A stretch of 64,000 nt of DNA, taken from a virus. Its lineage: Duplodnaviria > Heunggongvirae > Uroviricota > Caudoviricetes. Position 1 is the first letter of the stretch; the number at the start of each line of letters is the position of its first letter. Positions 2,724-18,944 of the stretch are shown piece after piece. Where the stretch lies: the IMG/VR virus record IMGVR_UViG_3300033074_000961; one strand, given 5' to 3'. A program made the position numbers and the translations under genes. The notes beneath the pieces are model-generated. The model made no database searches and was not told the origin of the DNA. It worked only from the letters and a program-made list of their open reading frames with translations.

Positions 2724-3686
2724 TTATTTGAAGAGTTCTGTAATACTATTGTTGTTGTGGGTTCCGAGGATAGCTTTACCAAACACGTCGGCAACACTTA
2801 CCACCGTGATGTACTCGGGAGTTTTCTTCATCCAATGGATTTCATCTTCCACAATTGAATCGGAGCAGAAGAAACGGGTGAATGTTCCCTTGCCCCAAGC
2901 TTCATGCAATCGTCCCGCACCCAACTCCGTAAGACAACCATGAGTCACGGCGAGATAAACATCCTTTGCCCCATTGTTCTTGCAACAATTGGCGGCACTA
3001 ATGAGAGTACCAGCAGACTCGGTAAGGTCGTCCAATACGAGCACGTTCTTGCCCTTCACGTCGCCCACGAACTGACTGACTTCAACATCAGTATCATTTT
3101 TGCGCTTCTTAACGATGAAGGCGAAGTCCACTCCATCCTTTTCTGAGAATTCCACTGCCTTTTTGATGCCTCCTGTGTCGGGAGCAACCACTACATCAAT
3201 CGAATACTTTTTCAATGCAGCGGAGAGAGTTGGTTGAAAGTAAAGGTGGTCCAGAGGAAGGTTGGTGAATCCTTGTACTTGCTGTGCGTGAAGGTCCATC
3301 GTAATGACACGATTGATTCCCGCAGCGGCAATAATATCAAGAACTAGCTTGGCAGAGATGGGGACTCGGGGTTTGTCTTTGCGGTCTTGGCGTGAATACC
3401 CAAGGTAGGGAATAACCGCAGTAATTCTGTCGGCAGAGGCACGGCGAGCAGCATCCGCCATGATAAGCAACTGCATCAGGTTATCATTGGCAGGTTGAGA
3501 AACCGCTTGCATCAAGAAAACGTCGGCACCCCGCACGTTCTCTTTCAGTTGGCAGTACCATTCACCCGAAGGAAACTGGTGATGATAGATTGCACCCCGA
3601 TTGATTGCATCGTGGCGAGCGGTTACGGATTTGGCAAGACGTTCACTCGCCTTACCAGCAAAGAGTACGCAACGTCGGTCTTTCAT
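2724..3686 (-). CDS. prs: ribose-phosphate pyrophosphokinase (PRPP synthetase)-family enzyme; could instead be an ADP-ribose pyrophosphokinase-type paralog
   Basis: Prs motifs DLHAQQVQGFF and VVAPDTGG; the 320-aa length is typical. Confidence 0.8.
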   Translation of the reverse strand: MKDRRCVLFAGKASERLAKSVTARHDAINRGAIYHHQFPSGEWYCQLKENVRGADVFLMQAVSQPANDNLMQLLIMADAARRASADRITAVIPYLGYSRQDRKDKPRVPISAKLVLDIIAAAGINRVITMDLHAQQVQGFTNLPLDHLYFQPTLSAALKKYSIDVVVAPDTGGIKKAVEFSEKDGVDFAFIVKKRKNDTDVEVSQFVGDVKGKNVLVLDDLTESAGTLISAANCCKNNGAKDVYLAVTHGCLTELGAGRLHEAWGKGTFTRFFCSDSIVEDEIHWMKKTPEYITVVSVADVFGKAILGTHNNNSITELFK

Positions 3687-3724
3687 GGTAGGTCAGTATA
3701 ACACACCCAAGATAATTGTCAAGG

Positions 3725-4540
3725 TCATTGTGGAATACGAACTCTGTGGACAGAACCCGGTCTTGTTGCTGCCGGTGGAGTGTAAACTAATTCATCACTA
3801 TAGACAGATTCAAGACCATTCGTAATATAAGCAGTAGCTGCATAGTAGGTGGGAATTCCTACAATGATGTTTGATAAAGTTATCGTCAACATTGCCTTGG
3901 CATCTACAACATTAGTATAGTTTCTACTTGACGGTCCAGAGTACACTTTATATTGAATGAACATGTTAGTGGAACTTGGGCTGGCATCCCACGCCAAAGT
4001 AACCTTTGCGTAAGTATTGGTTGAAGGCGGGAGATTTGTTATTGCATTAGCATAGATACAATAATTGAAATCAACGTTGCCACTCTGCATTGTTAGAGTC
4101 GTGGGCCATTGTCCATATGTTCTTGGCGAGCTTTCCCAACGAGTCGAACCACCACTTGTATTACAATATATTGCCGCTCCCTGTGTGTCAGACCATGAGG
4201 CAAACCAATAATACTGTCCATTAGTAAGAGAAACATTTGTCGCCAATGGCAATGAATACCAACCCGAAGACGGATTGGATATTTCTGAACTTTGTTGCAT
4301 CAATTGTGACGGACCAGAAGAATTTCCTGCATAGATTGCGAATTTGTATCTACCTGAAATACCAACAACTCGGGCATTTAGAGTAGAAATAGTCATGTTG
4401 GATGACGCTTGGAAACGAGACACATTGATATAGTTGTTAATTGGGTCGGAAGTAGTTCCGTTGCTATTATTTCCGATGAATGCATTAGCATTAACCACAA
4501 GGGTTAATAGAAATGAAATTGTTATCAGTAATGTTTTCAT
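3725..4540 (-). CDS. secreted hypothetical protein (N-terminal signal peptide, Asn/Ser/Thr-rich)
   Basis: MKTLLITISFLLTLVVNANA signal peptide. Confidence 0.5.
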   Translation of the reverse strand: MKTLLITISFLLTLVVNANAFIGNNSNGTTSDPINNYINVSRFQASSNMTISTLNARVVGISGRYKFAIYAGNSSGPSQLMQQSSEISNPSSGWYSLPLATNVSLTNGQYYWFASWSDTQGAAIYCNTSGGSTRWESSPRTYGQWPTTLTMQSGNVDFNYCIYANAITNLPPSTNTYAKVTLAWDASPSSTNMFIQYKVYSGPSSRNYTNVVDAKAMLTITLSNIIVGIPTYYAATAYITNGLESVYSDELVYTPPAATRPGSVHRVRIPQ

Positions 4541-4545
4541 AATGT

Positions 4546-5184
4546 TTATTCTCCGTATTTCTCAATTCCTTCTTGTCCAAAGCGGTTGAACAGTTTGTCC
4601 AAGTATGCTTGGGTTTTGATTTTGCACATCCAGATACCGCCTCTATGGGCACCCGTCTTCAATGTGCCTTTGCATACCACGCCCTCAGTAACAGGGTACT
4701 TGCCTGCCCTTACATCAGCAATGAATTGGTCCGTGAGGTTGCCAGTATAAACAACCTTGGGAGATATGATTTTGTATTTCTCACTTAGATTAACAAACTC
4801 TTGGGGTGATAGGAACTTCCTATTCTTATGCCCCACCATGATGTCAAAGCATACGAGACGCTGGGTTGGGTCATTGGGTTCATGCCATCCCGCAAAGGAT
4901 TGGTCGCCAAAGAACTCAAGGAAGGCGATGACTTCACGCTCATTGGGAAATTCACCCTCAATCAAGTCCACGAGGGGATTCTCAAAATGCTCATAGAAGT
5001 ATGGAATAGCAGGAGCGAGGAACGGATGCCCTTTATCAAACATCTGTGTGCGACTTCCAAACAAATGGAAACCTTTCTTGTTCGTGTACTTCACACGAAT
5101 GTTGCTGCCATCAAGCTTATCAAAGGCAATCATTGACTCCCGAGGAGCCTTGCCGCTTGGCATTATGGATGGATATTCAATCAT
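4546..5184 (-). CDS. RNA-ligase-family nucleotidyltransferase (KxDG motif I)
   Basis: AFDKLDGSNIRV matches ligase motif I (KxDGxN). Short, nucleotidyltransferase domain only. Confidence 0.5.
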   Translation of the reverse strand: MIEYPSIMPSGKAPRESMIAFDKLDGSNIRVKYTNKKGFHLFGSRTQMFDKGHPFLAPAIPYFYEHFENPLVDLIEGEFPNEREVIAFLEFFGDQSFAGWHEPNDPTQRLVCFDIMVGHKNRKFLSPQEFVNLSEKYKIISPKVVYTGNLTDQFIADVRAGKYPVTEGVVCKGTLKTGAHRGGIWMCKIKTQAYLDKLFNRFGQEGIEKYGE

Positions 5185-5777
5185 ACAAATGCTAATCCGT
5201 TTGTGTATTGTGGGTCATTGTCTGCGAACCCAACGTGCCCACGGTCCTCAACGAGTGTGGGTTTGTCATTGTGCATCAAGTAATGCTTATAGGCACGGTC
5301 ATACATCACGATGTACACCGCAGCGGCAAGGTTGGTGCAATGCCGTGTGGGTATCTTTACAAATCTGTGGCAGTGACGACGCATCACTGGTGGTATGCTG
5401 CCATCCTCGGGACCAAAGACGTACACTGCATCCTCGGGATGTTCAAAGTCCATCAAGCATTCGGAGTTGTCCACCAACTCAATTGCTACTGGTGTAATAC
5501 CTTTACCAAAATGCTCAAAGGGATAGTCAAACTGACGCAATTCAACATCCTTATATCCCTTGAGACGTTCCTCTCTTGGAAGTCGTTGTCCTTCATCCAG
5601 ACGCACACGATTACCAGTCCACCACACTTGCTTGAAACCAAAGCACGATGCTGCCCGTTGTACCGCACCTACGTTGGCAGAGTACTTGGGATTACATAAA
5701 ATCACGGCAGGGACAATCCCCTCGGGTTTACTATTCTTTCCGTATATGGCAGCAGCATTCATATGTCGTAGGCACAC
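5181..5777 (-). CDS. SPOUT (SpoU/TrmH-family) RNA 2'-O-ribose methyltransferase
   Basis: VYVFGPEDGSIP plus HCTNLAAAVYIVMYDR (TrmH motifs 2 and 3); N-terminal NVGAVQRAASCFG. Overlaps the ligase gene by 4 nt. Confidence 0.6.
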   Translation of the reverse strand: MCLRHMNAAAIYGKNSKPEGIVPAVILCNPKYSANVGAVQRAASCFGFKQVWWTGNRVRLDEGQRLPREERLKGYKDVELRQFDYPFEHFGKGITPVAIELVDNSECLMDFEHPEDAVYVFGPEDGSIPPVMRRHCHRFVKIPTRHCTNLAAAVYIVMYDRAYKHYLMHNDKPTLVEDRGHVGFADNDPQYTNGLAFV

Positions 5778-5971
5778 TCACGGGTGCAATCAGGACAGCA
5801 GGTACAATGAGGGTCGGTATTACCAGACATCTCTTCCGAGTAAGGACAGGAATGTGGTTCGCTTGCGGGATTACGCTTGCACCTTTTGCAGAGGTCTTTT
5901 TCTTCTTTGACTTCGCTATCCATATTGTGCCAGTTCTTTTTCCAACAGTTCTTTGTATTCGTTGTGGTCAA
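5759..5971 (-). CDS. small Cys-rich hypothetical protein
   Basis: CKRCKRN...CTCCPDC pattern. Confidence 0.3.
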   Translation of the reverse strand: MTTTNTKNCWKKNWHNMDSEVKEEKDLCKRCKRNPASEPHSCPYSEEMSGNTDPHCTCCPDCTRECAYDI

Positions 5972-6152
5972 GCAGTGCTTTGACCGCTTCGTTCAAAGTA
6001 TCTGCCAACTTCTTGCGCTCGTCGTCATCGTGCAACCCAAGAGCAATCTTGGTGTTGTCCACTTCGACATCTACATCGCAATACTTGGCAAGGTTTCGGA
6101 CTGTAATTGTCATACGTAATGTCGCCATCCACCCTTGGAGTTTGGTTGCCAT
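5916..6152 (-). CDS. hypothetical protein
   Basis: Charged, helical 78-aa ORF. Confidence 0.3.
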   Translation of the reverse strand: MATKLQGWMATLRMTITVRNLAKYCDVDVEVDNTKIALGLHDDDERKKLADTLNEAVKALLDHNEYKELLEKELAQYG

Positions 6153-6307
6153 CCAAGTTCTGTAAGGCGAGCGGTTTTTTCTTCGTCGTACTTCGTTACA
6201 TCAAGTCCGGCGATGATGACATCGTGCTCGGCACTGATGATGGTTGCTGGTTCTACGGACTTCACTATCTGAAGTCCCTCAATGATTAAGTCTAAAGTTG
6301 AGTGCAT
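6110..6307 (-). CDS. hypothetical protein
   Basis: ORF in a run of same-strand genes. Confidence 0.25.
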   Translation of the reverse strand: MHSTLDLIIEGLQIVKSVEPATIISAEHDVIIAGLDVTKYDEEKTARLTELGWQPNSKGGWRHYV

Positions 6308-6311
6308 ATGT

Positions 6312-6647
6312 TTATCCTAACGCCCAATTACAAATCCCCATGAACTCTCGGGGTTTCTCGTCCTCGGGCAAAAATCGCCATTCTCGTTTTTCGGTATCCC
6401 ATGCCCACCACTGTTCAGAGTGGACCATTGGGTGAATACCGGGTTCAATGTATTCCATTACCACATAGTCATACAAACACTCTTCAATGTTGCCACGGTT
6501 CTCTTTGACCGCAGTGTACGCTTCATTGTAGGTCGGATAGAATCCGAAAGTGCGCTTGCGAGAAAGGTATCGTTTATGGACACCGTATTCTTTCGCTTGC
6601 TTTTCCAGCGTTTCTTTACCAATGATTGATGTTATGAACCACGGCAT
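6312..6647 (-). CDS. hypothetical protein
   Basis: 111-aa ORF. Confidence 0.4.
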   Translation of the reverse strand: MPWFITSIIGKETLEKQAKEYGVHKRYLSRKRTFGFYPTYNEAYTAVKENRGNIEECLYDYVVMEYIEPGIHPMVHSEQWWAWDTEKREWRFLPEDEKPREFMGICNWALG

Positions 6648-6931
6648 AGTTGTAAAATCAGTTTGTTGACAAAATCTTTTCTGTCCGCTTCATTCAAGTT
6701 ATCCGAGTATGGTATAATCTCAGGTGTGAATGAAAGCAGCAAGGTGCGAGTTATTTCTCTTGGGTCGCCACGCAATGCTGACATCGTAATCAAGGGTTTC
6801 CCTTGATACCACCACGTATCAGAATAAGTGCCCCACTTGCCAACCCAAGGTTTGTTTACAAAACCAAGTTCAGTTAGCAGTTCCGCCAACCTTTTCTTGC
6901 TTGTTTTTCTTTTTTGGTTTGCCATATTCAC
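6632..6931 (-). CDS. hypothetical protein
   Basis: 99-aa ORF. Confidence 0.35.
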   Translation of the reverse strand: MNMANQKRKTSKKRLAELLTELGFVNKPWVGKWGTYSDTWWYQGKPLITMSALRGDPREITRTLLLSFTPEIIPYSDNLNEADRKDFVNKLILQLCRGS

Positions 6932-7070
6932 AATCGGGACAAATGACTAGCGGCTCTCCGTGGTTATGAAGCTGCCAAGCGAGAATACGCCACTTGGCGT
7001 ACGAAATGTCTTTCGCATCACCGAATGACTGTTTCTCGCCGCACTCACAGCATTCCAGCTTCCAACTCAT
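6870..7070 (-). CDS. zinc-ribbon hypothetical protein
   Basis: CCECG...CPDCEYG. A σ70-like promoter lies immediately upstream. Confidence 0.35.
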   Translation of the reverse strand: MSWKLECCECGEKQSFGDAKDISYAKWRILAWQLHNHGEPLVICPDCEYGKPKKKNKQEKVGGTAN

Positions 7071-7077
7071 CGTTGCC

Positions 7078-7110
7078 AGATGATACCACGCTTCTACAAA
7101 AAGTCAAGCT
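7078..7110 (-). promoter_or_regulatory. σ70-like promoter (TTGACT-N16-TGnTATCAT) for gene 6870..7070; its -35 box is half of the palindrome AGTCAAGCTTGACT
   Basis: Read on minus strand: CTTGACTttttgtagaagcgTGgTATCATctggcaacgATG. Confidence 0.5.
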
Positions 7111-7138
7111 TGACTTGGAACTATTTATGGTGTATGAT
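7110..7138 (+). promoter_or_regulatory. σ70-like promoter (TTGACT-N17-TATGAT) firing divergently from the same palindrome; start codon lies about 7 nt after the -10 (leaderless)
   Basis: cTTGACTtggaactatttatggtgTATGATagcgacaATG. Confidence 0.45.
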
Positions 7139-7145
7139 AGCGACA

Positions 7146-7283
7146 ATGAAGAAATTGTGGGACAGAGTAAAGTGGATAGGTGAGTGCCTATTCGTCTGGT
7201 GTATATTGCTCCCCATAATGATAATCCTGATGCAATTGTGGAAAAAGGATTACGAAAAGATGACCGACAACCGCTATGATTGA
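7146..7283 (+). CDS. small membrane protein (probably leaderless; shortened from ORF 7080..7283)
   Basis: MKKLWDRVKWIGECLFVWCILLPIMIILMQLW hydrophobic helix. The ATG sits at the predicted transcription start. Confidence 0.35.
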   Translation: MKKLWDRVKWIGECLFVWCILLPIMIILMQLWKKDYEKMTDNRYD

Positions 7284-7572
7284 CCTGAATAAAGTTCGAA
7301 GCATCCGTGCCCTTGAAGGGATGAAGAAGGATTTGACCGAGTTCGCCACATTTGATCGAGCGATAATGGTACAGGTCTATGACGAACAATATGGTTGGGG
7401 CGAGGAAGATTACGAGGCAGACCTTGACCAAGTTAAGGAAATGCTTGAGAAGGTGGAGCGTCGTATCAATAGTCTTTCCAACTATTTGAATAAGCAAAAG
7501 GTTAAGGTGGATAAGAAGAAGCATGGACAATCTGGTGCATCGGAATCCCCAACCGCTTCACAATCTGCTTAA
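7276..7572 (+). CDS. hypothetical acidic coiled-coil protein
   Basis: Protein-like 98-aa ORF. The antisense ORF 7045..7530 is low-complexity. Confidence 0.4.
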   Translation: MIDLNKVRSIRALEGMKKDLTEFATFDRAIMVQVYDEQYGWGEEDYEADLDQVKEMLEKVERRINSLSNYLNKQKVKVDKKKHGQSGASESPTASQSA

Positions 7573-8215: not shown

Positions 8216-8216
8216 T

Positions 8217-8630
8217 TTACATGAAGACGACTTTGAACACCCATGCGAACAATATGCAAACCCACGGAGAGAGTAGAGGCACGAGGACTTCTGTAACTCT
8301 ATCCGAGACGGTCTTGGTCTTGTCCGCTTCACTGTTCAACTTCACTGTATGGGAACTGGTTACGAAGCGAACGACCATTAAAATAGCAGCTGCCTGAACC
8401 CATGTCAGTGCTTTGAGTCCGAGAATGGGGACCACGAACCATCCCCACAGGACAGAGAGGGCATAACCATAAGCAAAAACTCCATAATCCCAACCGAGAG
8501 GGAGAAGGAGAATGAAACCGAGTATAGCAGCAAGTGCTACACCAACTGACAGATTTTCGTCTTTCATATTTTTGTGTTTATTGAGAGCGGCCATCCGCTT
8601 TGCTTCTTCTTCGAAAAGGGATGGCTTCAT
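8217..8630 (-). CDS. multi-pass membrane protein
   Basis: Several hydrophobic segments. Confidence 0.45.
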   Translation of the reverse strand: MKPSLFEEEAKRMAALNKHKNMKDENLSVGVALAAILGFILLLPLGWDYGVFAYGYALSVLWGWFVVPILGLKALTWVQAAAILMVVRFVTSSHTVKLNSEADKTKTVSDRVTEVLVPLLSPWVCILFAWVFKVVFM

Positions 8631-8632
8631 GA

Positions 8633-9369: not shown

Positions 9370-9698
9370 CGTCGTTTCCTTCCGAGACGCATAAGATTGT
9401 GCATCTGCTTTTGTTCAAATATCTTTACCTGCAAGTGATGCCCTTCCTTAAACCTTTCGTCGGGAGCAGCAACCGCAGCACCGTCATAAGCAGCAAGCAC
9501 TTTCCTTACAGTATCTACCTTAATGGCGGCGAGTTGTTGAAGTTTGAACAACAAGGTCTCCGTTTGAGATTTATTCAACCCACGATGGACACAATGAAGG
9601 GCAATCCTGTGTTCAGGACTGCCCTTCTTTAGCAAATCCCCAGCCACGGCAGCAACTTCGTACTCCCGTTCTGTTAGGGGTTTGGCGTACTTATTCAC
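9366..9698 (-). CDS. hypothetical protein with possible C-terminal HTH (LTEREYEV)
   Basis: Weak similarity to LuxR / sigma region-4 HTH. Confidence 0.3.
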   Translation of the reverse strand: MNKYAKPLTEREYEVAAVAGDLLKKGSPEHRIALHCVHRGLNKSQTETLLFKLQQLAAIKVDTVRKVLAAYDGAAVAAPDERFKEGHHLQVKIFEQKQMHNLMRLGRKRR

Positions 9699-10470
9699 GG
9701 CGGAAGGTTGGGATTGGGGCCAACTTGTGCAGAGTGGCAGCGTGCCGAGTCGTGTAGATTTCCAGCACTTGCTTCTGCCGAGGGGTTAATCCTTCAAGCA
9801 GGACCGTGGAGTAGCACCCCTTGCCATCTTCCACCCACTTCATTGCCCATTCCAGTTCCTCGTACGATGCACCAATGGCATCTTCATCCGTGCGGGTGTC
9901 CGCCCACAGACCATCCGTAGGAACTGCCTCAGAGAGTTCTGGCAGCACGCCCAAGTCACGGCACATCTGCCGCACTTCGGTCTTGGTCAAGTCGGAGATA
10001 GGAGAAATGTCCACACCACCATCACCATACTTGGTGAAGAAACCGATACCAAAGTCTTCCACCTTATTGCCGGTGCCTACTACGAACGCACCCTTGCAGC
10101 ACGCCACTTGATAAAGAGCAATCATGCGAAGGCGACTCTTCGTATTGGCAAAGGCAAGGTCATTGTTGTAGTCAATGCGGACTTCTTCACGAAACGCTTC
10201 AAACGTAGTCGTAAGGTCAATCTTGTGGAAAACTACATTGTTGTAGTTATCCTGCAACCAGTCAATGTGCTTTTCACCACGACTGGTTTGGTCGCCCTTG
10301 GTTTGACATGGAAGAATGACGCAGTGGGTCGGGAGTCCCGTCATTGCACAGAGGGTGGACACCAATGCGGAATCAACACCACCCGATACGCCAATTACCC
10401 AACCTTTGGCACCATTCTTTTTTGCGTAGTTATTCAACCACGCCACGATTTCATTTGCTAGTTCTTTCAT
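9691..10470 (-). CDS. nadE: NH3-dependent NAD+ synthetase
   Basis: PP-loop GVSGGVDSALV; 259-aa length and overall NadE architecture. Confidence 0.85.
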   Translation of the reverse strand: MKELANEIVAWLNNYAKKNGAKGWVIGVSGGVDSALVSTLCAMTGLPTHCVILPCQTKGDQTSRGEKHIDWLQDNYNNVVFHKIDLTTTFEAFREEVRIDYNNDLAFANTKSRLRMIALYQVACCKGAFVVGTGNKVEDFGIGFFTKYGDGGVDISPISDLTKTEVRQMCRDLGVLPELSEAVPTDGLWADTRTDEDAIGASYEELEWAMKWVEDGKGCYSTVLLEGLTPRQKQVLEIYTTRHAATLHKLAPIPTFRRE

Positions 10471-10471
10471 A

Positions 10472-10681
10472 TTAGAAACACTCCGTCTTTTTTGTTACAC
10501 CGAATTTCTTCATTGTTCTCTTCATGTCCGCAACCGCATCCCGCTTACGTTTGAAGGGAAGTCGGTTGGTAATCCACGCATCAGCAAACATACCGGGACC
10601 AAACCAAATGGGACATGCCCATTCCCATTGCCTATCAAGGCGACGGTTGAGGGTTCTGCGATAGGAGACAATCTCTTTCAT
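10472..10681 (-). CDS. hypothetical small protein
   Basis: 69-aa ORF between nadE and pncB. Confidence 0.3.
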   Translation of the reverse strand: MKEIVSYRRTLNRRLDRQWEWACPIWFGPGMFADAWITNRLPFKRKRDAVADMKRTMKKFGVTKKTECF

Positions 10682-11874
10682 GCTCCAATCTCCTGTAATG
10701 CCCGTTGAATTGCAGCGGCATCGCCTGTGTGCTTGCCAGCGTCATCCGAGAGCTTGACCACGGGAATCATACCTTGCCCGAAGTCAGCAGCAGTCAGTTT
10801 GATAACCATATTCAGCGGTTTGACTCCAACATCGTTAGTGAAGTTCGTTCCGATACCACCAACCGGCTGAGCAACTTTGCGATACTTATGGTCAATCGCC
10901 ACATAGTTGTAGTTTTTGCCAGCCATCACTTGGTCCTTCGGGGCAACCCCGAGACTGTCACTGAACACGAGACGCTTACCAATGGGATTGATACGCATAC
11001 GAGCGTAGAACGGCAGTACCTTATTGTCTGCCCAATCATAGGGTACACCCGAGTCTTGCCGCAGTCCATCGTACAGGTGAGCATCGTACTTCTCAAACTG
11101 ACGAAGGAAAAAGTCGGTCGTGAAAGTATCACTAAGAGATACACCAACATCACCCTCAAAGTGCTCTGCCCACACTTTGCGCCACATTTTGTCTGCCATG
11201 CGAACACCGTACAGTGCCGACATTGCCATAATGCATTCGTGGGCGTATGTGCCATGAGGGGTCACACCATACTTGAAAGCGAAATAGGGATTGCTCGTGC
11301 CGAGGAATCCATTAAGCATACGCATCTGTTTAACGACGGCTTCTTGAATCCTCTTGGCGAAACGACGGCGAGTGCCGAAGTCAATCCAGTGGCATCCCTC
11401 AGTCTGTAGGAGCACGCCTTTGTTCTCAATCCGTTGTTCCCACTCAGCATCGGGTTCTTGTCCCGTCATAATGAAATACAACTCGGAAATGATTGCCATG
11501 AGTTTGACTTCCCAGTAAATCGTGCGATACCACGGACCACGGATTTTGATACGAAGGTCTCCACCCTCTTGGGTAATGGTCACTTCATTGGGATTCATCT
11601 GATACCCATACAACCATTCAACATAGGTCGGGCGCATGTAAGGAATCTTCTTGAGCCAATCTGCCTCAAGATTGGTTAGACCAATGTGAGACAGCAAGTT
11701 GATTTGATGCTGTAGGTTTTCGGCAAACCCCTCGGGAAACTGAGTTTTGCCCCGGTTGAAGAAGGTGTACTCCACAATGGCACGGGGAAACATATGGAAG
11801 ACCACAGACCCCATGTTAATCTTGTAGAGGTCATCGTCCAACATGCTTGTGATAATCGGGCCTTTCACGTTCAT
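10678..11874 (-). CDS. pncB: nicotinate phosphoribosyltransferase
   Basis: DLYKINM N-terminus and GTSNPYFAFKYG region typical of PncB; 398 aa. Confidence 0.8.
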   Translation of the reverse strand: MNVKGPIITSMLDDDLYKINMGSVVFHMFPRAIVEYTFFNRGKTQFPEGFAENLQHQINLLSHIGLTNLEADWLKKIPYMRPTYVEWLYGYQMNPNEVTITQEGGDLRIKIRGPWYRTIYWEVKLMAIISELYFIMTGQEPDAEWEQRIENKGVLLQTEGCHWIDFGTRRRFAKRIQEAVVKQMRMLNGFLGTSNPYFAFKYGVTPHGTYAHECIMAMSALYGVRMADKMWRKVWAEHFEGDVGVSLSDTFTTDFFLRQFEKYDAHLYDGLRQDSGVPYDWADNKVLPFYARMRINPIGKRLVFSDSLGVAPKDQVMAGKNYNYVAIDHKYRKVAQPVGGIGTNFTNDVGVKPLNMVIKLTAADFGQGMIPVVKLSDDAGKHTGDAAAIQRALQEIGA

Positions 11875-11877: not shown

Positions 11878-11912
11878 GTTATCCTATCACAGTGGTATAA
11901 AAAGTCAAGCTC
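11878..11912 (-). promoter_or_regulatory. σ70-like promoter (TTGACT-N16-TGnTAGGAT) upstream of pncB
   Basis: CTTGACTttttataccactgTGaTAGGATaacaccATG on the minus strand. Confidence 0.4.
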
Positions 11913-12204: not shown

Positions 12205-13925
12205 TTGCGTTTGATTTGATGAAAGCTGTTGCCATTGATAAAGAAAATGCCATCGCTGGTTGAGAACAACTTCATAGTGCTATCAAATGGAGGATTCTGC
12301 AACGTTTCAACCTGAGTGGCAGTGGCGAACAATTCCAATTCGTCGGGACTCGCCAGCAAAGCACACATACCATTCTCCATCACTGTGAAGTTGATAGTAT
12401 CATATGCCACGTCATCCACTTTGCGAACATCGCACGAGTTGTATGCCTTGTTGAAAATGATAATGAAGCGATCATATTGACCCTTCTTTTCACCGAGGAC
12501 CACAACTACATTCCGTTCTGCCTTGGCACCGACAATACGATACCCGTCCAACTGTGGGACGTGCTTGCTGAAACACGCACCTTGTTTGTATGGCAAGGTC
12601 AGATACATCTTGCCGAGCAAGTCCTGTACCACACAACCATCGTACATCTTGGAAGTAGTAACCGAGACGTTGGCAATTTCAATAGCACGACGAACCATTT
12701 TGTTGCCGAATGCCGTGAAGGAGTTCTCCATCAACTTACCGTGGGCAATGGTATAGATGCTGTTGTTCCTTGCGAACATTTCATTGCTCGTTGCCGTGCC
12801 AATAGGTTCACTAGCAGTAAGAGTCTTGAAGACTATCTTATTGCTATTGTCTTGTTGAGCAGTAATGAGAGTGCCATCCGATGCCGAGCAGAGAGTAATC
12901 TTCTTGGCATTATGCGTACCAATCTCTTTCTTGTTGGCATAGATATGGGTCTTAGTTGCCACGTAGTAGATGCCCAAGATTTGTTGAATTGCCAAGATAG
13001 GATTGGTATAGGCAGCGATTTCACTGACACCAATCTTATCCGTGCCTTGGATAGTGATAACTTGAGTGGGCACAAGCAAGGGCACACTACTATCTGCCAG
13101 CGGTGGAACACCACGCTCACCATTCAAGAACACTCGTTTGAACCAATCCAAGTGACGGCCCGGGATGACTTTGAAATCATTAACCGATGGAGGGACACGC
13201 ACTCCGCTATGGAATACGCTAATACCGTCGTCCATTTGCTTCGCCTTATCCTTGGGTTTGTAGTTGGGGTGAGTCCCACGATAAGGATGGATATTGGTAT
13301 AGAGCCAGAACGTCAGCACAGACCACGAGAACCAATCCGACTCAATGGTGGGATTGTAGTGCATAGTTCCACCCTTGTCAAAGGTAGTAACTTTCCTATC
13401 TCTCACCGAGTCCATAATAGCAGTTGCTCTGAACGATGGAGTGGAGTAACTATCCGTATCAATAAACCACGGCGTAAGATTGCTTCCCTTTTGTTCGGCA
13501 AGAATGTTCAACTCATTCAAGTCCACAATGAGACATTGAGCGGAGTGAACGTCGGCAACCACCTTCTGCATTTCTTTGACAAGGTGATTAACCATATGGA
13601 AGTCAATGTTGTTCGCATCCTTGAATGTGCGGGTGAAGAACTTCAAGAGCGGTTCAACGTTGTCCACGAAGCGGGTAGTGTACCCGAGCGGTTTGCCGTT
13701 CTTCGGGTCAAAGATGATTTCTTGTGGGATGACTACTTGGGGATTCTTAATCAATCCCAACTCCTGCATTTTCTTTGGCGGGAGCATCTTCTGGTCGGGG
13801 TCATGGTACAACTTATACGCCATGCCACTTTGGACATAGATTGCCGCTTCACCGCCAGCTGCCAAGTAGTTCTTGTCAGTAATGGTGATTACGCCACTGT
13901 TGCCTATTTTGACTTTCTGGTTCAT
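12201..13925 (-). CDS. protein-kinase-like (ePK/RIO/Kdo-like fold) protein with C-terminal extension
   Basis: Gly-rich loop AAGGEAAIYV, lysine in AYKLY, catalytic-loop-like IVDLNELNIL, FIDTDS (DFG-like). Confidence 0.5.
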   Translation of the reverse strand: MNQKVKIGNSGVITITDKNYLAAGGEAAIYVQSGMAYKLYHDPDQKMLPPKKMQELGLIKNPQVVIPQEIIFDPKNGKPLGYTTRFVDNVEPLLKFFTRTFKDANNIDFHMVNHLVKEMQKVVADVHSAQCLIVDLNELNILAEQKGSNLTPWFIDTDSYSTPSFRATAIMDSVRDRKVTTFDKGGTMHYNPTIESDWFSWSVLTFWLYTNIHPYRGTHPNYKPKDKAKQMDDGISVFHSGVRVPPSVNDFKVIPGRHLDWFKRVFLNGERGVPPLADSSVPLLVPTQVITIQGTDKIGVSEIAAYTNPILAIQQILGIYYVATKTHIYANKKEIGTHNAKKITLCSASDGTLITAQQDNSNKIVFKTLTASEPIGTATSNEMFARNNSIYTIAHGKLMENSFTAFGNKMVRRAIEIANVSVTTSKMYDGCVVQDLLGKMYLTLPYKQGACFSKHVPQLDGYRIVGAKAERNVVVVLGEKKGQYDRFIIIFNKAYNSCDVRKVDDVAYDTINFTVMENGMCALLASPDELELFATATQVETLQNPPFDSTMKLFSTSDGIFFINGNSFHQIKRK

Positions 13926-14701
13926 ACCACAATTGCCGCTACGGAAATATCGTCGGAATGCTTAATGCCTTCCTTCTCACATTTCCTTTTGAATGCCGCA
14001 AGACGACGGAGAACGAATTCGCCCTCGGTTGTCTTGTATCCCGTGAACTCGTCAACGAGGCTAGTCCATAGGATAGGTTCATTATCTGCACGACGAAAAC
14101 TATTGATACCATCCGAAATAACTGCAATGATGTCTCCCGGCTCCACGGTCGCATCAAAACTATATGGTTCAAGTGGCTTGGTGTTGACTTGAACAGTCTT
14201 GCCGAGGATAGTCACGGCGACTTCCTTCTTATTATCCTCTATGTTCTCGTAGGCTTGTCGCCTTAGAGGGTCAAGTTGATAAGCAAGGTAGTCAGGTGCT
14301 CCGCTAGTAAGATGGATATGGATACTATTGACGCCTAGTTTGGTTCTATGAACCAAGACACCATCACCATACATACGAGCAGTCAGTTTACCTTCCTTCA
14401 CCCACGCCACAAGCAACGTCGCATCCAATGCTTGAGAATGGAGATAAGGGAAGACATCAAATACTCGTTGGGCATTGTGGATAACATCCTGCCCCCACAG
14501 TTTGGCATCACTTTCCAATCCCAAACGAATCTGTCTCTTGGCAGACATGGCAAGACAACGAGCACCGAAGTCCACGTCGGGAGAAGCGGAGCATCCATCA
14601 CATACTACTGCATATGTCTTGCCTGCGATTTCCCCTGTGAGAGCATAGTCCTCACATACAATGTGGTCTTTGCCGATTTGATATGTACTGTTGGCGTTCA
14701 T
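13922..14701 (-). CDS. PP2C-family Ser/Thr protein phosphatase
   Basis: AVVCDGCSAS, VISDGI, DDISV metal-binding motifs. ATGA overlap with the kinase gene. Confidence 0.65.
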   Translation of the reverse strand: MNANSTYQIGKDHIVCEDYALTGEIAGKTYAVVCDGCSASPDVDFGARCLAMSAKRQIRLGLESDAKLWGQDVIHNAQRVFDVFPYLHSQALDATLLVAWVKEGKLTARMYGDGVLVHRTKLGVNSIHIHLTSGAPDYLAYQLDPLRRQAYENIEDNKKEVAVTILGKTVQVNTKPLEPYSFDATVEPGDIIAVISDGINSFRRADNEPILWTSLVDEFTGYKTTEGEFVLRRLAAFKRKCEKEGIKHSDDISVAAIVV

Positions 14702-15069
14702 TTAGATAAATCAATTTCGTTCAGTAGGTTGATGCTTCGGATGGTTGTGCCACAAATATGACACTTATCGGCGGGTCCACATTGAGCAGAACATATTCCA
14801 AGATGCCCCGTTGTAGAAACCATACCATGATTGCCCCACGTTGAGCGGTTGGTCCATTCTTCAAGGAGAGCATACATCTCGTCAAATCGCTTTTGTTTAA
14901 GCGTATTCGCCTCTCTTGCCTCTTTCAAATCAAGAGCAATCCGAAGGATACCCATTTCATTGATAGGGCCAGAACGAAGTTCACCTTCATTCTCTATCAA
15001 TTCTTCAAGCAGATTTTGTGGAACTCGCATTTTTCGTAATTTGTTGAATGATGTGCGACGTGGAATCAA
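14698..15069 (-). CDS. hypothetical protein
   Basis: 123-aa ORF with C-terminal Cys cluster. Confidence 0.35.
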   Translation of the reverse strand: MIPRRTSFNKLRKMRVPQNLLEELIENEGELRSGPINEMGILRIALDLKEAREANTLKQKRFDEMYALLEEWTNRSTWGNHGMVSTTGHLGICSAQCGPADKCHICGTTIRSINLLNEIDLSK

Positions 15070-15490
15070 ACTGCATCACGTCGGGGACAATGACTACTTC
15101 CGCTTTGTTCGGGTTCACCACGTCTTCGGGTTTGAAATTCGTATTCTTAAAGAGCACTGTGGGATGGAAGGAATTACAAGCAATCTCCCAATCATTCAAG
15201 CTGCCCATGATGAATGTTATGTCAACGCATTCCAACGCATTAACAATCATTACTCGTTGATGCTCCGATATGACTGGTCTATTCGGACCTTTGACCTTGC
15301 GTATAAAGTCATCGCAGTCCACGCCCACAATGAGGACATCACACATACGCTTGCATTTCTGCAAGTAAGCAAGGTGTAGTGAGTGGAATAAGTCAAAGCA
15401 TCCCGAAGTCAAACCAATGACGGGACTCTTCCCGAAGTAGTGGAATGAGATAAGGTCTTTGTCTCGTGTGCTGCGAATATCTATCAACAT
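15005..15490 (-). CDS. cytidylyltransferase-like nucleotidyltransferase (HxGH family)
   Basis: LTSGCFDLFHSLHLAYL matches GxFDxxHxGH of RfaE-II / TagD / NMNAT-type enzymes. Confidence 0.5.
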   Translation of the reverse strand: MLIDIRSTRDKDLISFHYFGKSPVIGLTSGCFDLFHSLHLAYLQKCKRMCDVLIVGVDCDDFIRKVKGPNRPVISEHQRVMIVNALECVDITFIMGSLNDWEIACNSFHPTVLFKNTNFKPEDVVNPNKAEVVIVPDVMQFDSTSHIIQQITKNASSTKSA

Positions 15491-15491
15491 A

Positions 15492-15746
15492 TTAGTCCTT
15501 CGGGTGTTCTCCGAATTGGAGAAAGTAGCTCAATCTCCACGAGTAGGCACAGGTGAATTCGTGTCGCCCATCCTCGGTCGTTCCCAAAACGAAAGCATTG
15601 TAATTTCTGTCCACACACCACTTGATGCATCGGTCAAAATCCCACAGGATAGGAAATGTAAAGATTTTGTTGGTCTTCGCATATCCATCATCTTCTTCCA
15701 TCGGGTCTGGACGCTCTTGAACTTCACTTTCAACGATGGCAGTCAT
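15492..15746 (-). CDS. hypothetical protein
   Basis: 84-aa ORF. Confidence 0.3.
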   Translation of the reverse strand: MTAIVESEVQERPDPMEEDDGYAKTNKIFTFPILWDFDRCIKWCVDRNYNAFVLGTTEDGRHEFTCAYSWRLSYFLQFGEHPKD

Positions 15747-16308
15747 AGTTGCTTATTGTTTTGCACATTTTAAGAAATTGGTCTTGAGGCATATCCCATT
15801 TCATGTTATTGACAATTGAGTGTACCCATTGCACATTTCCTTTAATGTATCCTTTGGACGAATCTATTCTATCCAACGATGCTGTTCCTTGTACCCGTCC
15901 ATGATTAGCACCAAATACAAGCGGGAGACCCGAAAGAGCACACTTCCTATTCTGTTTGATGAACAAATCCCATATCTCGTGGATGGTTAACTCGAATATG
16001 ATTTTCCGTGCCTTGGCATTGTACGAAATAGATTTGAAAAACCTACTGGAAATCTCTTTGTGACCTTTCCAACTCTTATGTGTTTCTCCGTAGGTGTAAT
16101 GAGAACATCCGCATGATTGGGTATGCCCACTTTTCAAATGAACTGCTTGTACTCTCTTTTTATTCCCACAATCGCAGTGACACTGCCATTGGGTTTGTCC
16201 GTTGATGCTTGGTAATCTATGTAAAACTACCAGTTTGCCAAATCGTTTATTTGTTAAATCAATAAGTTTCATATTATTCATCCCTATGTAGGTTGTTATA
16301 CCATACAT
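15730..16308 (-). mobile_element. free-standing HNH homing endonuclease (paralog of 36363..36950)
   Basis: CHCDCG Zn finger plus ASLDRIDSSKGYIKGNVQWV HNH motif. Shares long near-identical peptides with ORF 36363..36950. Confidence 0.65.
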
Positions 16309-16332
16309 AGGGATAAATATGATTCAAGTCCA

Positions 16333-17082
16333 CTAAAACTTGAAGTTATTGAGTGGAACGCTAGATTTTCCGCTTCCAAGGGCCGTGCTCGTTGAGCTAA
16401 TTGATTGACTCACAAAATCTGCGAGTTTAGCAATTTTGCCCGGGGTCGCTCGACCTATCGAAATGTACTGATCAAAACCACCATCGTCCTTGACGGTCTG
16501 GAGATAGGTATTCAAACTAATGTCGTCCTGAGTCACACCCACCAAAATCAGGAGGATGCTCTCAAGGTTCTCGGAGCGGCGAACTGCCTGCAACGATTTC
16601 TTGACTTGTGCGGGGTCCATGATGGCACCACAGTTGTTCTCACCGTCAGTAACGGCGACCACAATGGCGTTCACCAAGAAGTCCTGACTCGTCAATTGCT
16701 TGCCATAAGTGCCCGTGGCTTGGAGGGCTTCGTCCACTGCCTCAAAGAGAGCAGTGCTACCACCGAGTTGGAGAATGTTGTCATAATCCTTCTCGTTGAT
16801 AGTGGAGAGAAGCTTGAACCCGTGCAATTCAGTCAACCTATTGGCGAACTGAGTGAGACGGAGCATGAGGTTGTCACGCCGAGGCGACTTGTCACATGCC
16901 TTGAAGATGGTCTTCAATGCCTGTTCCAGTTGCACAGCGTAACCCTCGACGGAGCTGCTGGCATCCATCACGATGGTTGCCAGAGTGTACTCAGCGGCAC
17001 CGAGATCGTTAATCTTAGTGGCACTGAATTTGTATCCCGAACCTGCGTTCAGGTTTTCAAGGTTTTTGCTAAGTAAGCTCAT
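16333..17082 (-). CDS. von Willebrand factor A (vWA) domain protein
   Basis: MIDAS motif VMDASSSVEG; LGGSTAL. Confidence 0.6.
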   Translation of the reverse strand: MSLLSKNLENLNAGSGYKFSATKINDLGAAEYTLATIVMDASSSVEGYAVQLEQALKTIFKACDKSPRRDNLMLRLTQFANRLTELHGFKLLSTINEKDYDNILQLGGSTALFEAVDEALQATGTYGKQLTSQDFLVNAIVVAVTDGENNCGAIMDPAQVKKSLQAVRRSENLESILLILVGVTQDDISLNTYLQTVKDDGGFDQYISIGRATPGKIAKLADFVSQSISSTSTALGSGKSSVPLNNFKF

Positions 17083-17118
17083 AACTTGATATTCTGTTAT
17101 TGGTTGATGTTGATAGAA

Positions 17119-17997
17119 TTACCAGTCAGTCGTGCGAGTGACCTTCATTCCCTTGCCAACCATTTCCTTCACGAAGTCCTGACCGAGCTTCTCAAACGTA
17201 CCCACGTTCGAGGACGTGTCTTCCAGAAGGGTGAACTTCTGAACTTGGTCAACGCCGAAGTTGGCGGCAATGTCACGGATGGTGTTCGCAACGCAGTGCG
17301 ACAATGCTTCACCCGTAATGAGGATTTCATCTGCCTCAGTAAGTGTATCAATGAGGGCAGTGTTGAGACCCGTGCTTGGGTCTTGGTCGTCCGGCACGTC
17401 AGCCATCACGCCCGAGTAGTGTTCCGTAAACAAATTGGAACCCTTGGCGACGAAGTTGACTCGTTGGAAGTCCGCTTCCCACTCATACAGAGCGGCGGCG
17501 ACAGACGGCACGATGGAGTGACCCCACGTACCAATGAGACAGTGCGGCGGCCAAATCACCAACACGTAGCGACCATTCTTCTTCAAGGTCTCCACGTAAT
17601 TGAGGGCACGGCCCTGCCACTTCGGATTGTAGGCACGCCACGTTCCATTCTTCACGTCATCCTCAGTAATGAGGGTGAAGGGATTGGGACGCTCGCCCTT
17701 GGAATTGACCCAGAAGGCGGGGTGAGCAATGTGTACCAACTGGTGAGAATCCAGTGTGCAGTGAATTTGCTCAATGCGTTTCTTGTTCTTGACGATGAAT
17801 TTCGCCAAGCGATCCATGTCCGCATCAGCACCAGCAACTACCAGTGCGCCTTTCTCGTGCCCGAAGCGTGCAGTTTTGGCGTCTGCCCCGGGAGCCAGCG
17901 GAATGCAAAAATCATTCTGCGGATCGATTGTTATTAGATGTACGTTTTTTGTTGCCATAACTATGTGTCTTTCTTGTTTGTTTTCAGTCCCCGACAC
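17119..17997 (-). CDS. pncA: nicotinamidase (isochorismatase family)
   Basis: LITIDPQNDFC signature of PncA-type hydrolases; catalytic Cys region HCL. Confidence 0.65.
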   Translation of the reverse strand: MSGTENKQERHIVMATKNVHLITIDPQNDFCIPLAPGADAKTARFGHEKGALVVAGADADMDRLAKFIVKNKKRIEQIHCTLDSHQLVHIAHPAFWVNSKGERPNPFTLITEDDVKNGTWRAYNPKWQGRALNYVETLKKNGRYVLVIWPPHCLIGTWGHSIVPSVAAALYEWEADFQRVNFVAKGSNLFTEHYSGVMADVPDDQDPSTGLNTALIDTLTEADEILITGEALSHCVANTIRDIAANFGVDQVQKFTLLEDTSSNVGTFEKLGQDFVKEMVGKGMKVTRTTDW

Positions 17998-18014
17998 GGG
18001 ACTAAAGTGTTTGT

Positions 18015-18944
18015 TTACGGTAAGCGTAGTATCTCATTGTTGAAGTAATCGTTCAACATATGGAGCAGCGGACGATGGTTTTCCGAAACCTCCGCTTCGC
18101 TTAATTCTGCAAAGTTTTTCCAAGTGACATACTCAATGTCATCTGCCGCCTTGGGTGTACCGCCATTGTATTTCAATACGAAAAGGGCGGTCATAATCTT
18201 GTCTTGCTCCGAGCGGTAACGCCAATCATTAACGAAAGTGCTACCAACATACTTCGGTTCAATCACGTCAAGTCCCGTCTCTTCTTTGACTTCACGGATA
18301 GCTGCCTCTTCCATGCTCTTATCTTGAGCGGGGTCTGTGAACCCACCGGGGAAGCAGAGGGTAGAACGATTGGGTTTACGAGCAAGTAGAAGGCGTTTGT
18401 TATCGTAATCAATCACCGCCATGTCCACTGTCAACTTGAACGATGGGAATTGATTTTGGACTGCGTAAACAATACCTTCACGAAAGTCTTGGGTGGGTTT
18501 GGCCTTGATGCCGATGCGTCGGCGAATTTCACTCGCCGAAATGAATTTGCTAGGCACAAGTTCAATGGTGGGAAACCCACCCTTGTAGGAATTGATGAAA
18601 CTATCCCGACTGCCATACATGACCGCTTTCAATTTGGGTCCGATGGTCTGCGAAATGAGCTTGTCAAGGTTCTTGCTCCAAAGGTCGTTGTCGCCAACGT
18701 CATTCAGATAGAGAACTTCAACATCCCGATACTTTTCCTCAACCATTGCCTTGCGGATGCCGAAGTCAAACGGGTTGTTGGCAGTACACTTGAGCGGGGA
18801 TAGACCGAGAACGATGATTACTCGGGGATGGGCGTTGCGGACAATCTCGATGATTTCTTGATGTCCCTCGTGGAGGAATGGCGATTGGAATCTCGCCACA
18901 ATAACGCCAACGTCTGCATTTTGTTCAGTCACTTTCATAGTCAC
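18015..18944 (-). CDS. nadM: bifunctional NMN/NaMN adenylyltransferase – Nudix (ADP-ribose pyrophosphatase) NadM-type
   Basis: N-terminal ARFQSPFLHEGH (HxGH NMNAT motif as in NadM). C-terminal Nudix box REVKEETGL. Confidence 0.75.
   Translation of the reverse strand: MTMKVTEQNADVGVIVARFQSPFLHEGHQEIIEIVRNAHPRVIIVLGLSPLKCTANNPFDFGIRKAMVEEKYRDVEVLYLNDVGDNDLWSKNLDKLISQTIGPKLKAVMYGSRDSFINSYKGGFPTIELVPSKFISASEIRRRIGIKAKPTQDFREGIVYAVQNQFPSFKLTVDMAVIDYDNKRLLLARKPNRSTLCFPGGFTDPAQDKSMEEAAIREVKEETGLDVIEPKYVGSTFVNDWRYRSEQDKIMTALFVLKYNGGTPKAADDIEYVTWKNFAELSEAEVSENHRPLLHMLNDYFNNEILRLP

Follow-up and report, generated by a model that had tools for sequence, protein, structure and literature searches.

The depletion of nicotinamide adenine dinucleotide (NAD+) is among the commonest strategies by which bacteria resist phages. 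The stretch of DNA analysed here, hereafter the window, comprises 64 kb of a virus record of the Caudoviricetes (IMGVR_UViG_3300033074_000961), and it holds a set of genes whose products are predicted to rebuild NAD+ from nicotinamide and ADP-ribose (ADPR). The initial annotation had assigned five open reading frames (ORFs) to this task: a nicotinamidase (PncA), a nicotinate phosphoribosyltransferase (PncB), a NadM-type adenylyltransferase fused to a Nudix hydrolase (NadM–Nudix), an NAD synthetase (NadE) and a ribose-phosphate pyrophosphokinase (Prs). All five lie on the minus strand where it had placed them. The ORFs themselves stand, although the starts of PncA and NadM–Nudix had to be trimmed to 17958 and 18938, respectively. 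Between PncA and PncB lie three further genes, for a VWA-domain protein, a PP2C-type phosphatase and a protein kinase, which form a four-gene cassette with PncA. In the direction of transcription, the features of the region are the following:

18015..18938, minus strand: NadM–Nudix, a NadM-type pyridine-mononucleotide adenylyltransferase with a C-terminal Nudix hydrolase, 307 amino acids (aa); assigned from PDB, Pfam and motifs
17119..17958, minus strand: long-form nicotinamidase, PncA-like, 279 aa, first gene of the four-gene cassette; assigned from PDB, conservation and AlphaFold2 (AF2)/Foldseek
16333..17082, minus strand: VWA-domain protein with an intact metal-ion-dependent adhesion site (MIDAS), 249 aa; Pfam VWA, 31.1 bits
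15005-15490, minus strand: protein like RfaE/HldE domain II (heptose-1-phosphate adenylyltransferase) or TagD, between VWA and PP2C
13922..14701, minus strand: PP2C-type protein phosphatase, 259 aa; Pfam PP2C_2, 35.4 bits
12201..13925, minus strand: protein kinase with a C-terminal β-propeller, 574 aa; assigned from invariant residues and AF2/Foldseek
10678..11874, minus strand: nicotinate phosphoribosyltransferase PncB, 398 aa; assigned from NCBIfam, Pfam and PDB
10472..10681, minus strand: ORF of 69 aa (orf69) without a family match, between PncB and NadE
9691..10470, minus strand: single-domain, ammonia-type NAD synthetase NadE, 259 aa; assigned from TIGR00552 and Pfam
2724..3686, minus strand: class I ribose-phosphate pyrophosphokinase Prs, 320 aa; assigned from NF002320 and PDB matches

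The identity of the nicotinamidase was supported by several kinds of comparison. Its start is most likely the ATG at 17958, because the homologues have about 270 residues and the gene call in a near-identical contig has 279 (related contigs or stretches are labelled L001, L002, L004, L006 and L007; this one is L007). Significant sequence matches in the PDB were confined to nicotinamidases (29iv, yeast Pnc1 2h0r and M. tuberculosis PncA 3pl1), and no NCBIfam or PHROG match was found for the protein. The residues D12, K172 and C222 of the Asp–Lys–Cys catalytic triad, which align with the IDxQNDF, KG and xxCV motifs of these three structures, were invariant in 60 relatives (cluster representatives, 37–71% identity), as were D70, H72 and H139. 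The latter three we take to be the Asp/His/His metal site (DxH … WPxHC), on the basis of established PncA structures and our alignments; it is this site that separates nicotinamidases from other isochorismatase-fold hydrolases. The AF2 model reached a predicted local distance difference test score (pLDDT) of 95.7 and a predicted template modelling score (pTM) of 0.92. When it was searched against the PDB with Foldseek, the top 11 matches were all nicotinamidases, led by 2wta (E=2e-15), with TM values of 0.75–0.81 normalised to the target. The protein is about 80 residues longer than the solved PncAs. Overall, we predict that this ORF encodes a member of a divergent, long-form nicotinamidase subfamily; the Cys-Asp-Lys triad, whose absence would have counted against the initial annotation by its own terms, is invariant, and the modelled fold matches nicotinamidases.

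The other four enzymes were assigned by hidden Markov models (HMMs) and structures. PncB exceeded the cut-offs of NF003704 (391.7 bits vs 379) and TIGR01514 (348 vs 269.55), showed the two-domain architecture NAPRTase_N plus NAPRTase in Pfam, and aligned end to end with its best PDB match, the nicotinate phosphoribosyltransferase 2im5 (246 bits). An exact look-up of PncB returned a sole match, on a Logan contig of 1.7 kb. NadE scored 165.5 bits against TIGR00552 (cut-off 63.65), 163 bits against NAD_synthase (PF02540) and 257 bits against phrog_11189; in Pfam it consisted of PF02540 alone, with no CN_hydrolase (glutaminase) domain. Prs passed NF002320 with 324.5 bits (cut-off 297), contained all three Pfam domains (Pribosyltran_N, Pribosyltran and Pribosyl_synth) and matched bacterial and human PRPS over its full length in the PDB search (about 205–215 bits). 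For NadM–Nudix, which from the ATG at 18938 is identical to the database protein P0121, NUDIX passed with 54 bits while CTP_transf_like stayed below its cut-off (18.8 vs 21). Nevertheless, its top PDB matches were 2qjo and 2qjt, the two solved NadM–Nudix enzymes, with both domains aligned. Residues H23/H26 (HxGH), S134/R139 (ISxSxIR) and R215/E219/E220 (REx2EE) were conserved in 37 homologues (49–87% identity), and a two-residue insertion precedes the REVKEETG core of the Nudix box, which shifts the canonical G-x5-E-x7-R spacing by two residues. The protein thus appears divergent, yet with both catalytic motif sets retained.

The five family assignments of the initial annotation therefore held up in HMM (Pfam and NCBIfam), PDB sequence and conservation tests. 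Its doubts over a loss of catalytic residues and over the nature of Prs were answered by the intact PncA triad and NadM–Nudix motifs and by a canonical, full-length class I Prs.

Three further candidates were considered and set aside. A reading of the Prs ORF as Adps was rejected on its scores against curated Prs models. A hidden NadD at 15005–15490 was rejected; this ORF, which is conserved in L004 and L007, has a cytidylyltransferase fold of the RfaE-domain-II or TagD kind. A NadR-like enzyme at 29169–30332 was unsupported (AAA_28, 23.4 bits vs 27; no PDB relative).

Between 18938 and about 8633, all genes read in one direction, and neighbours either overlap by 4–8 nucleotides (nt) or are separated by no more than 56 nt. 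Overlaps of 4 nt join PP2C to the kinase, the kinase to orf99 and PncB to orf69, and one of 8 nt joins NadE to orf110. The orf69, which overlaps the PncB stop in this way and terminates 1 nt ahead of the NadE start, was also found downstream of PncB on the Logan contig L001, and no family match was obtained for it. The five NAD genes are not compact: they span 16 kb, with about 20 other ORFs between them, within a co-directional, tight array. Matches to σ70-like promoters with an extended -10 TG were present on the minus strand in the gaps upstream of NadM–Nudix (19069-19041), PncB (11908-11881) and Prs (3722-3695). The promoter evidence is weak, since σ70-like sites showed only a mild excess over the whole region (34 observed vs 24.3±4.2 in the promoter/terminator scan). 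Directly upstream of NadM–Nudix (19277-21097, minus strand) lie a small XPRT-like phosphoribosyltransferase (20633–21097), which is a second potential consumer of the phosphoribosyl pyrophosphate (PRPP) made by Prs, and a 221-aa protein (19277–19942) that is fragment-sized and resembles the core of class II glycyl-tRNA synthetase.

The closest associates of the nicotinamidase are the trio of genes that follows it. In the VWA protein, the MIDAS residues D40-x-S-x-S44, T110 and D146 were at least 90% conserved in 63 homologues; in the phosphatase, the metal-binding residues D18, D35, D113, D197 and D250/D251 were conserved to the same degree in 71 homologues. The 574-aa kinase gave no confident Pfam or PADLOC match. 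Its residues K38, E55, D135, N140 and D156 were invariant in 42 homologues, and its AF2 model (pLDDT 83.7) combined a kinase fold (residues 1–270) with an all-β domain (298–574), with Foldseek matches that included LRRK2 kinase-WD40, BamB and IRAK4. Judged by these residues, all three proteins look catalytically competent. We then counted the genes within ±10 kb of long-form PncA in 80 IMG/VR loci (45–83% identity; contigs of up to 485 kb). VWA was found in 74 of them, PP2C in 72 and the kinase–β-propeller in 70. The NAD genes were less frequent (PncB 22, NadM–Nudix 11, ammonia-type NadE 9, glutamine-dependent NadE 7 and Prs 6), and NadV occurred in none of the 80. For the subclade of the window, with PncA at least 60% identical, PncB was present at 9 of 12 loci and NadM–Nudix at 10 of 12.

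The cassette is not confined to such loci. It occurs in three huge phages of Al-Shayeb et al., and a scan of 185,579 species-representative genomes for long-form PncA returned more than 600 bacterial or metagenome-assembled stretches. In three complete Capsulimonadaceae chromosomes, PncA, VWA, PP2C, the kinase and PncB are contiguous. The flanks in one of these chromosomes (LeuA, LeuB, a serpin, a histidine kinase, an FGGY sugar kinase and an MFS transporter) are a cellular context, not a prophage; they are common to two of the chromosomes, whereas the third has only the cassette in common. In view of this housekeeping setting, the cassette is a unit with a cellular life. The position of PncB directly after the kinase supports an amidase that makes nicotinate for PncB, and thus a functional link between PncA and PncB. 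Overall, huge phages and some bacterial chromosomes have in common an older unit, PncA–VWA–PP2C–kinase/β-propeller, to which PncB is often appended. No paper linking a nicotinamidase with VWA or PP2C in phages was found in the literature searched, and the cassette appears to be undescribed.

Taken at face value, these genes make up a plausible route from nicotinamide through nicotinate, nicotinate mononucleotide (NaMN) and nicotinate adenine dinucleotide (NaAD) to NAD+, with a branch from ADPR through ribose-5-phosphate to PRPP. The long-form nicotinamidase would deamidate nicotinamide to nicotinate, which PncB would combine with PRPP to form NaMN in an ATP-coupled reaction. The NadM domain would adenylate NaMN to NaAD, and NadE would then convert NaAD and ammonia to NAD+. 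On the branch, the Nudix domain would split ADPR into AMP and ribose-5-phosphate, from which Prs would make PRPP. The nicotinamide and the ADPR released by immune NADases would in this way both be recycled at the cost of ATP, and the VWA–PP2C–kinase trio would act by phosphorylation as a switch, either gating salvage or reporting on it. Whereas the comparisons above show the identities of the genes, their conserved catalytic residues, their synteny and their distribution, we infer from sequence the enzymatic activities, the substrate choices of NadM, NadE and the Nudix domain (among them NaMN for NadM and ADPR for Nudix), a regulatory function for the trio and the action against defences. The use of NadM in place of NadD has precedent, because the NadM of archaea accepts NaMN as well as nicotinamide mononucleotide (NMN), and in Acinetobacter NadM works alongside a classical NAD synthetase (De Ingeniis 2012). 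The window yielded no NadD, NadR or PnuC. Likewise, no Namat-like gene was found among the window ORFs scanned, and the sole gene of the NAPRTase family is the equivalog-level PncB.

Overall, we consider it probable that a jumbo phage carries here a nicotinamide-salvage island, placed around the older cassette, which maintains the supply of NAD+ throughout infection, also where defences deplete it. Several observations weigh against this reading. At the level of the single proteins, PncA reached only 21.6 bits against Pfam Isochorismatase PF00857 (gathering cut-off 27), over residues 211–246 only, and NadM–Nudix scored at best 65.2 bits against the bifunctional NCBIfam equivalogs of the PRK05379 series (cut-off 397). 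The first half of its Nudix box is non-canonical, and the ADPR-binding motif DxPxRSxRGR of 2qjo and 2qjt is kept only partly. At the level of the pathway, 6 kb with unrelated genes for an RNA ligase and a SpoU methylase separate Prs from NadE, and Prs could equally feed the XPRT-like enzyme at 20633–21097 or general nucleotide synthesis. No Nampt/NadV was detected in the window (tblastn with K64-1 NadV, best E=3.7), but the genome measures at least 224 kb, of which the window covers 64 kb, and a Nampt may lie elsewhere in it. Finally, the linkage of PncA to VWA, PP2C and the kinase is far tighter than to PncB, NadM–Nudix, Prs or NadE (16 of the 80 loci for both NadE types), and PncA may therefore serve the cassette and not a linear pathway. 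The initial annotation had presented the five enzymes as acting together; all five genes are present, but the conserved partners of PncA are the trio and not the other four.

The selective agent behind the island is a question in its own right. It is possible, although we find it doubtful, that defence plays no such part and that the island is general auxiliary metabolism, which raises or complements host NAD+ for a large, slowly replicating phage, for instance in hosts without nicotinamide salvage. A general role in metabolism or complementation, with a boost of NAD+ for propagation, is favoured for comparable phages by Li et al. 2024 (Microbiome 12:268; PMC11662467), in whose view the NAD pathways of phage and host complement each other. 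The setting of PncA–VWA–PP2C–kinase–PncB among chromosomal housekeeping genes points to a cellular, non-conflict life as well, and the window has other genes of metabolism and translation (EF-Ts, Thg1, ThyA, the phosphoribosyltransferase and Prs). On the other hand, the DNA ligase of the window (35227-36366, minus strand) is ATP-dependent (PF01068) and not NAD-dependent. One classic phage sink of NAD+ is thus absent from the window, and ligase demand cannot explain the island. Moreover, the neighbours of the island are enriched in ADPR-handling and anti-defence genes, of which the window itself contributes one, outside the coordinates listed above:

27439..27963, minus strand: Macro-domain protein with a DarG-like ADP-ribosyl hydrolase domain, an accessory ADPR-handling gene

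This protein scored 35.3 bits against Pfam Macro (cut-off 22), 55.8 against NCBIfam DarG and 62 against PADLOC DarG, in the macro domain only. Upstream of it is a conserved pair, an ORF of 144 aa (28738-29172, minus strand) and a 387-aa protein (29169-30332, minus strand) with a sub-threshold match to AAA_28, a NadR-kinase-like P-loop family, and with no PDB relative. In the relative L002, which has PncA, PncB and NadE together with Macro, NADAR and Apyc1, the Macro gene stands just upstream of PncA and the order AAA_28–144 aa–Macro likewise precedes it, while the insertions at 13547-14029 and 19888-20667 are NADAR and an Apyc1-like metallo-β-lactamase (between PncB and NadE). The island of L007 includes Acb3 (90-821), and that of L004 a PARP-domain protein (20694-20813). 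Genes for NAD/ADPR and anti-defence functions thus gather in the island as in a hotspot. These Macro/DarG-like, Acb3, Apyc1, NADAR and PARP neighbours lend support to a counter-defence role, and so do the phage pathways NARP1, NARP2 and NARP3, which show that rebuilding NAD+ defeats NADase defences. The metabolic and the counter-defence reading are not mutually exclusive.

A second question is the order of the last two steps. NadM followed by NadE is likely, and we give rather little credence to the order of Francisella, in which NadE would act as an NMN synthetase (NaMN to NMN) and NadM would then adenylate NMN; the net chemistry would be equal, with no NaAD. The top PDB match of the phage NadE is indeed the Francisella tularensis enzyme 3fiu (115 bits, vs 94 for the B. 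subtilis NAD synthetase), and the NadE homologue of Francisella acts as an NMN synthetase precisely where NadM replaces NadD (De Ingeniis 2012, citing Sorci 2009). The window fits such a case insofar as it has NadM–Nudix and no NadD was found in it, the only other ORF of cytidylyltransferase fold being the RfaE-II-like one, and NMN is the usual preferred substrate of NadM. However, 3fiu itself is nearer to the NadE of P. horikoshii, C. jejuni and H. pylori (153, 138 and 119 bits) than to that of the phage. The match therefore indicates membership of a 'short NadE' group and no specific affinity, which weakens the reading as an NMN synthetase. Moreover, the short NadE of M. jannaschii, also partnered with NadM, is a true NAD synthetase without NMN synthetase activity (De Ingeniis 2012).

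The relatives argue against the Francisella order too, since sister phages carry in the same slot a two-domain, glutamine-dependent NadE, the form classified as an NAD synthetase. The salvage set as a whole recurs in relatives, which supports the pathway reading: L004 and L006 combine this NadE with NadM–Nudix, PncA, PncB and Prs within 20 kb, with Prs in L004 located 1.2 kb downstream of PncB; LR756500.1 has four of the five genes (PncB, NadM–Nudix, PncA and NadE). The exchange is clearest in L007, where an ORF of 184 aa and a CN_hydrolase+NAD_synthase protein of 668 aa (18353-20915) replace orf69 and the 259-aa NadE of the window (9691-10681), with flanking genes that are 86–100% identical. 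Over the PP2C–kinase–PncB stretch, the same two sequences are only 75–86% identical, a drop indicative of mosaic recombination within the island. That the slot was kept while the type of enzyme was swapped favours a genuine step from NaAD to NAD+. By these alignments, the two NadE types appear to be interchangeable at one slot, and the slot appears to be functionally constrained.

A third question is whether PncA belongs to the salvage route at all. It might instead be part of a separate four-gene cassette for signalling or conflict, of the TerY-P kind, in which it would not perform bulk salvage of nicotinamide but might destroy or sense a nicotinamide-like signal, the NAD genes being merely frequent neighbours in one subclade. 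In an unbiased clustering of the 2,321 ORFs of the 80 loci, only the four cassette families were conserved (63–72 loci each, vs 18 for PncB). Their usual order on one strand, PncA>VWA>PP2C>kinase, is kept, and the four stay together through circular permutations. Most loci with PncA below 60% identity have the cassette and no NAD gene within 10 kb. The roughly 80 extra residues of the enzyme fit such a separate role, and so do the TerY-P-type triads that are known as stand-alone defence or signalling modules. Nevertheless, we regard this separate role as improbable. The full catalytic and metal constellation of a nicotinamidase is invariant and the fold matches nicotinamidases; PncB, the consumer of nicotinate, is the next commonest neighbour and stands directly after the kinase in complete bacterial chromosomes; and the TerY-P models of PADLOC match none of the three proteins.

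The TerY-P triad consists of VWA, PP2C and a Ser/Thr kinase (Anantharaman et al. 2012), and it is listed as a defence system of Gao et al. 2020 in PMC11090510. Like TerY-P, the trio of the window has adjacent VWA, PP2C and kinase genes with an intact MIDAS, PP2C metal site and kinase catalytic residues. Membership by PADLOC was rejected, as no PADLOC family matched any trio protein at E<=0.001. Moreover, the kinase of TerY-P goes with a zinc ribbon or OB fold, whereas that of the window is fused to a β-propeller, and the trio of the window is coupled to a nicotinamidase, often also to PncB, in phages as well as bacteria. With salvage retained as the function of PncA, we tentatively propose, as an idea that is unlikely in its full form, that the cassette, with or without PncB, is a phosphorylation-gated switch of nicotinamide salvage common to bacteria and huge phages. 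The trio would sense the breakdown of NAD+ (nicotinamide, ADPR or a derived signal) and turn on the costly deamidated route only at need. Osterman et al. argue that the PRPP-consuming NARP2 would be costly if always on; by the same argument, a regulated route would make sense, although this is speculation.

The window derives from a jumbo phage. It is extremely improbable that the region is bacterial DNA on a mis-binned or chimeric contig: the cellular-enzyme-like scores of Prs, PncB and NadE and the many bacterial stretches with long-form PncA would fit that origin, but genes for rIIA and rIIB lie 3 kb away on the strand of the NAD genes, the whole 64 kb is densely packed with small, mainly orphan genes and bears phage hallmarks, a scan of the window detected no tRNA, rRNA or cellular housekeeping flanks, and the closest relatives are IMG/VR contigs of up to 485 kb and, among deposited records, the huge phages of Al-Shayeb et al. 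(462–735 kb). The Logan contig L007 (223,629 bp) is 99.98% identical to the window across 6.9 kb, and L004 and L006 belong to contigs of 267–268 kb. The initial annotation was thus right to call the genes phage-encoded, as rIIA/rIIB, the IMG/VR relatives and the near-identical contig of 224 kb show. With regard to the size of more than 200 kb used for NAD-jumbo phages, it is reached by proxy, through the 223,629 bp of L007, the window's own contig on record having 94,639 bp. In a megablast search of the 16-kb region against deposited phages, nothing matched. At the protein level, PncB homologues were present in 13 of 50,697 deposited phage records and long-form PncA in 4; since both are so rare and two records nonetheless hold both, their co-occurrence here is not due to chance.

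Beside the NAD genes, the window encodes several other functions. An RNA ligase, a SpoU-type methylase, a Thg1-like tRNA-His guanylyltransferase, a polynucleotide kinase/phosphatase and a homologue of EF-Ts form a set that suggests counter-measures against tRNA-targeting defences:

4546-5777 (minus strand), 41865-42656 (minus strand), 62423-63415 (plus strand) and 40574-41176 (minus strand): RNA repair/translation set

A second phage kinase, unrelated to the kinase–β-propeller, is a fusion of a DnaJ domain with a Ser/Thr protein kinase (46186-47193, minus strand), which the PADLOC PD-T4-6 and mad6 kinase models match at 1e-39 to 1e-40. Three consecutive DNA methyltransferase genes lie at 53600-57274, with an ORF of 366 aa separating them; two belong to the N6_N4_Mtase family and face each other's strand, and the third encodes an N6-adenine methylase of the D12 class. 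A protein of 432 aa from the thymidylate synthase family (37708-39006, minus strand) matches that family from residue 65 on, in broken stretches; it may be extended or hold an insertion, or it may be a related enzyme that modifies pyrimidines.

To our knowledge, the three phage routes proven to rebuild NAD+ (NARP1, NARP2 and NARP3) all avoid deamidated intermediates. In NARP2, Nampt and NadM–Nudix convert nicotinamide to NAD+, and this was shown to defeat Thoeris, DSR and similar systems (Osterman et al. 2024). Like NARP2, the window has a bifunctional NadM–Nudix enzyme and a PRPP-dependent phosphoribosyl transfer, with NAD+ made from nicotinamide. Unlike the two steps of NARP2 through NMN, its route has four steps and is deamidated, through PncA, PncB and NadE, with no Nampt in the window. 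The salvage of phage KVP40 is reportedly of the NadV–NatV type (Lee et al. 2017). As in NARP1 (Adps and Namat), both ADPR and nicotinamide could be recycled with an enzyme of the Prs fold. However, Adps pyrophosphorylates ADPR directly, whereas the window has a canonical class I Prs and no Namat was found in it, so that ADPR would need prior cleavage by the Nudix domain. By contrast with NARP3 (PnuC and a NadR-like NMN adenylyltransferase/nicotinamide riboside kinase), the window gave no PnuC or NadR match. As no Nampt, Namat, NadR or PnuC was found in the window, the system is therefore neither NARP1 nor NARP2 nor NARP3.

The initial annotation had gone further and regarded a full deamidated route borne by a phage as a distinct, unpublished solution. 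This was overstated, as Li et al. 2024 (PMC11662467) describe, in silico only, 174 'NAD-jumbo phages' that encode a salvage or Preiss–Handler pathway in full; pncB-nadD-nadE clusters are among those reported, and phage pncA is mentioned. Like these phages, the window is predicted to encode every Preiss–Handler step, pncB and nadE included, in a cluster. Unlike the pncB–nadD–nadE exemplar, it has NadM–Nudix for NadD and PncA and Prs in addition, so that nicotinamide and ADPR could both re-enter a closed cycle. That study makes no mention of the VWA–PP2C–kinase trio between PncA and PncB. With respect to the four-step salvage of bacteria (PncA–PncB–NadD–NadE, with NadM variants in Acinetobacter, archaea and Francisella), the predicted chemistry is equal; the version of the window differs in being viral, in its long-form PncA and in the interleaving of its genes with those of signalling proteins. 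According to Iyer et al. 2022, every phage with NadM has NadV. Both the window and the surroundings of NadM–Nudix/PncB in LR756500.1 contradict this, within the 64 kb of the former and two stretches of the latter.

What is new with respect to Li et al. 2024 and NARP1–3 is thus a version that relies on NadM–Nudix and has neither NadD nor Nampt, the presence of PncA and Prs beside it, and the interchangeable types of NadE. If the pathway reading is true, PncA–PncB–NadM–NadE, with recycling through Nudix and Prs, would add a fourth phage solution that differs chemically from the other three. Nicotinate-based intermediates are reported to be chemically more stable (Sharma et al. 2022), and a deamidated route would, by extension, be indifferent to the NMN deamidase of the host. 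The genes are small and clonable, which makes the idea directly testable. The chief novelty, however, is the conserved nicotinamidase–VWA–PP2C–kinase cassette common to phages and bacteria, which suggests that NAD salvage can be under the control of a switch. With a nicotinamidase locked to the trio in about 90% of the viral loci and in bacterial chromosomes, a TerY-P-like module gains a testable metabolic output. If the switch reading is also true, the island would represent a regulated counter to NADase immunity and, compared with the TerY-P-like triads known so far, the first with an assigned output.

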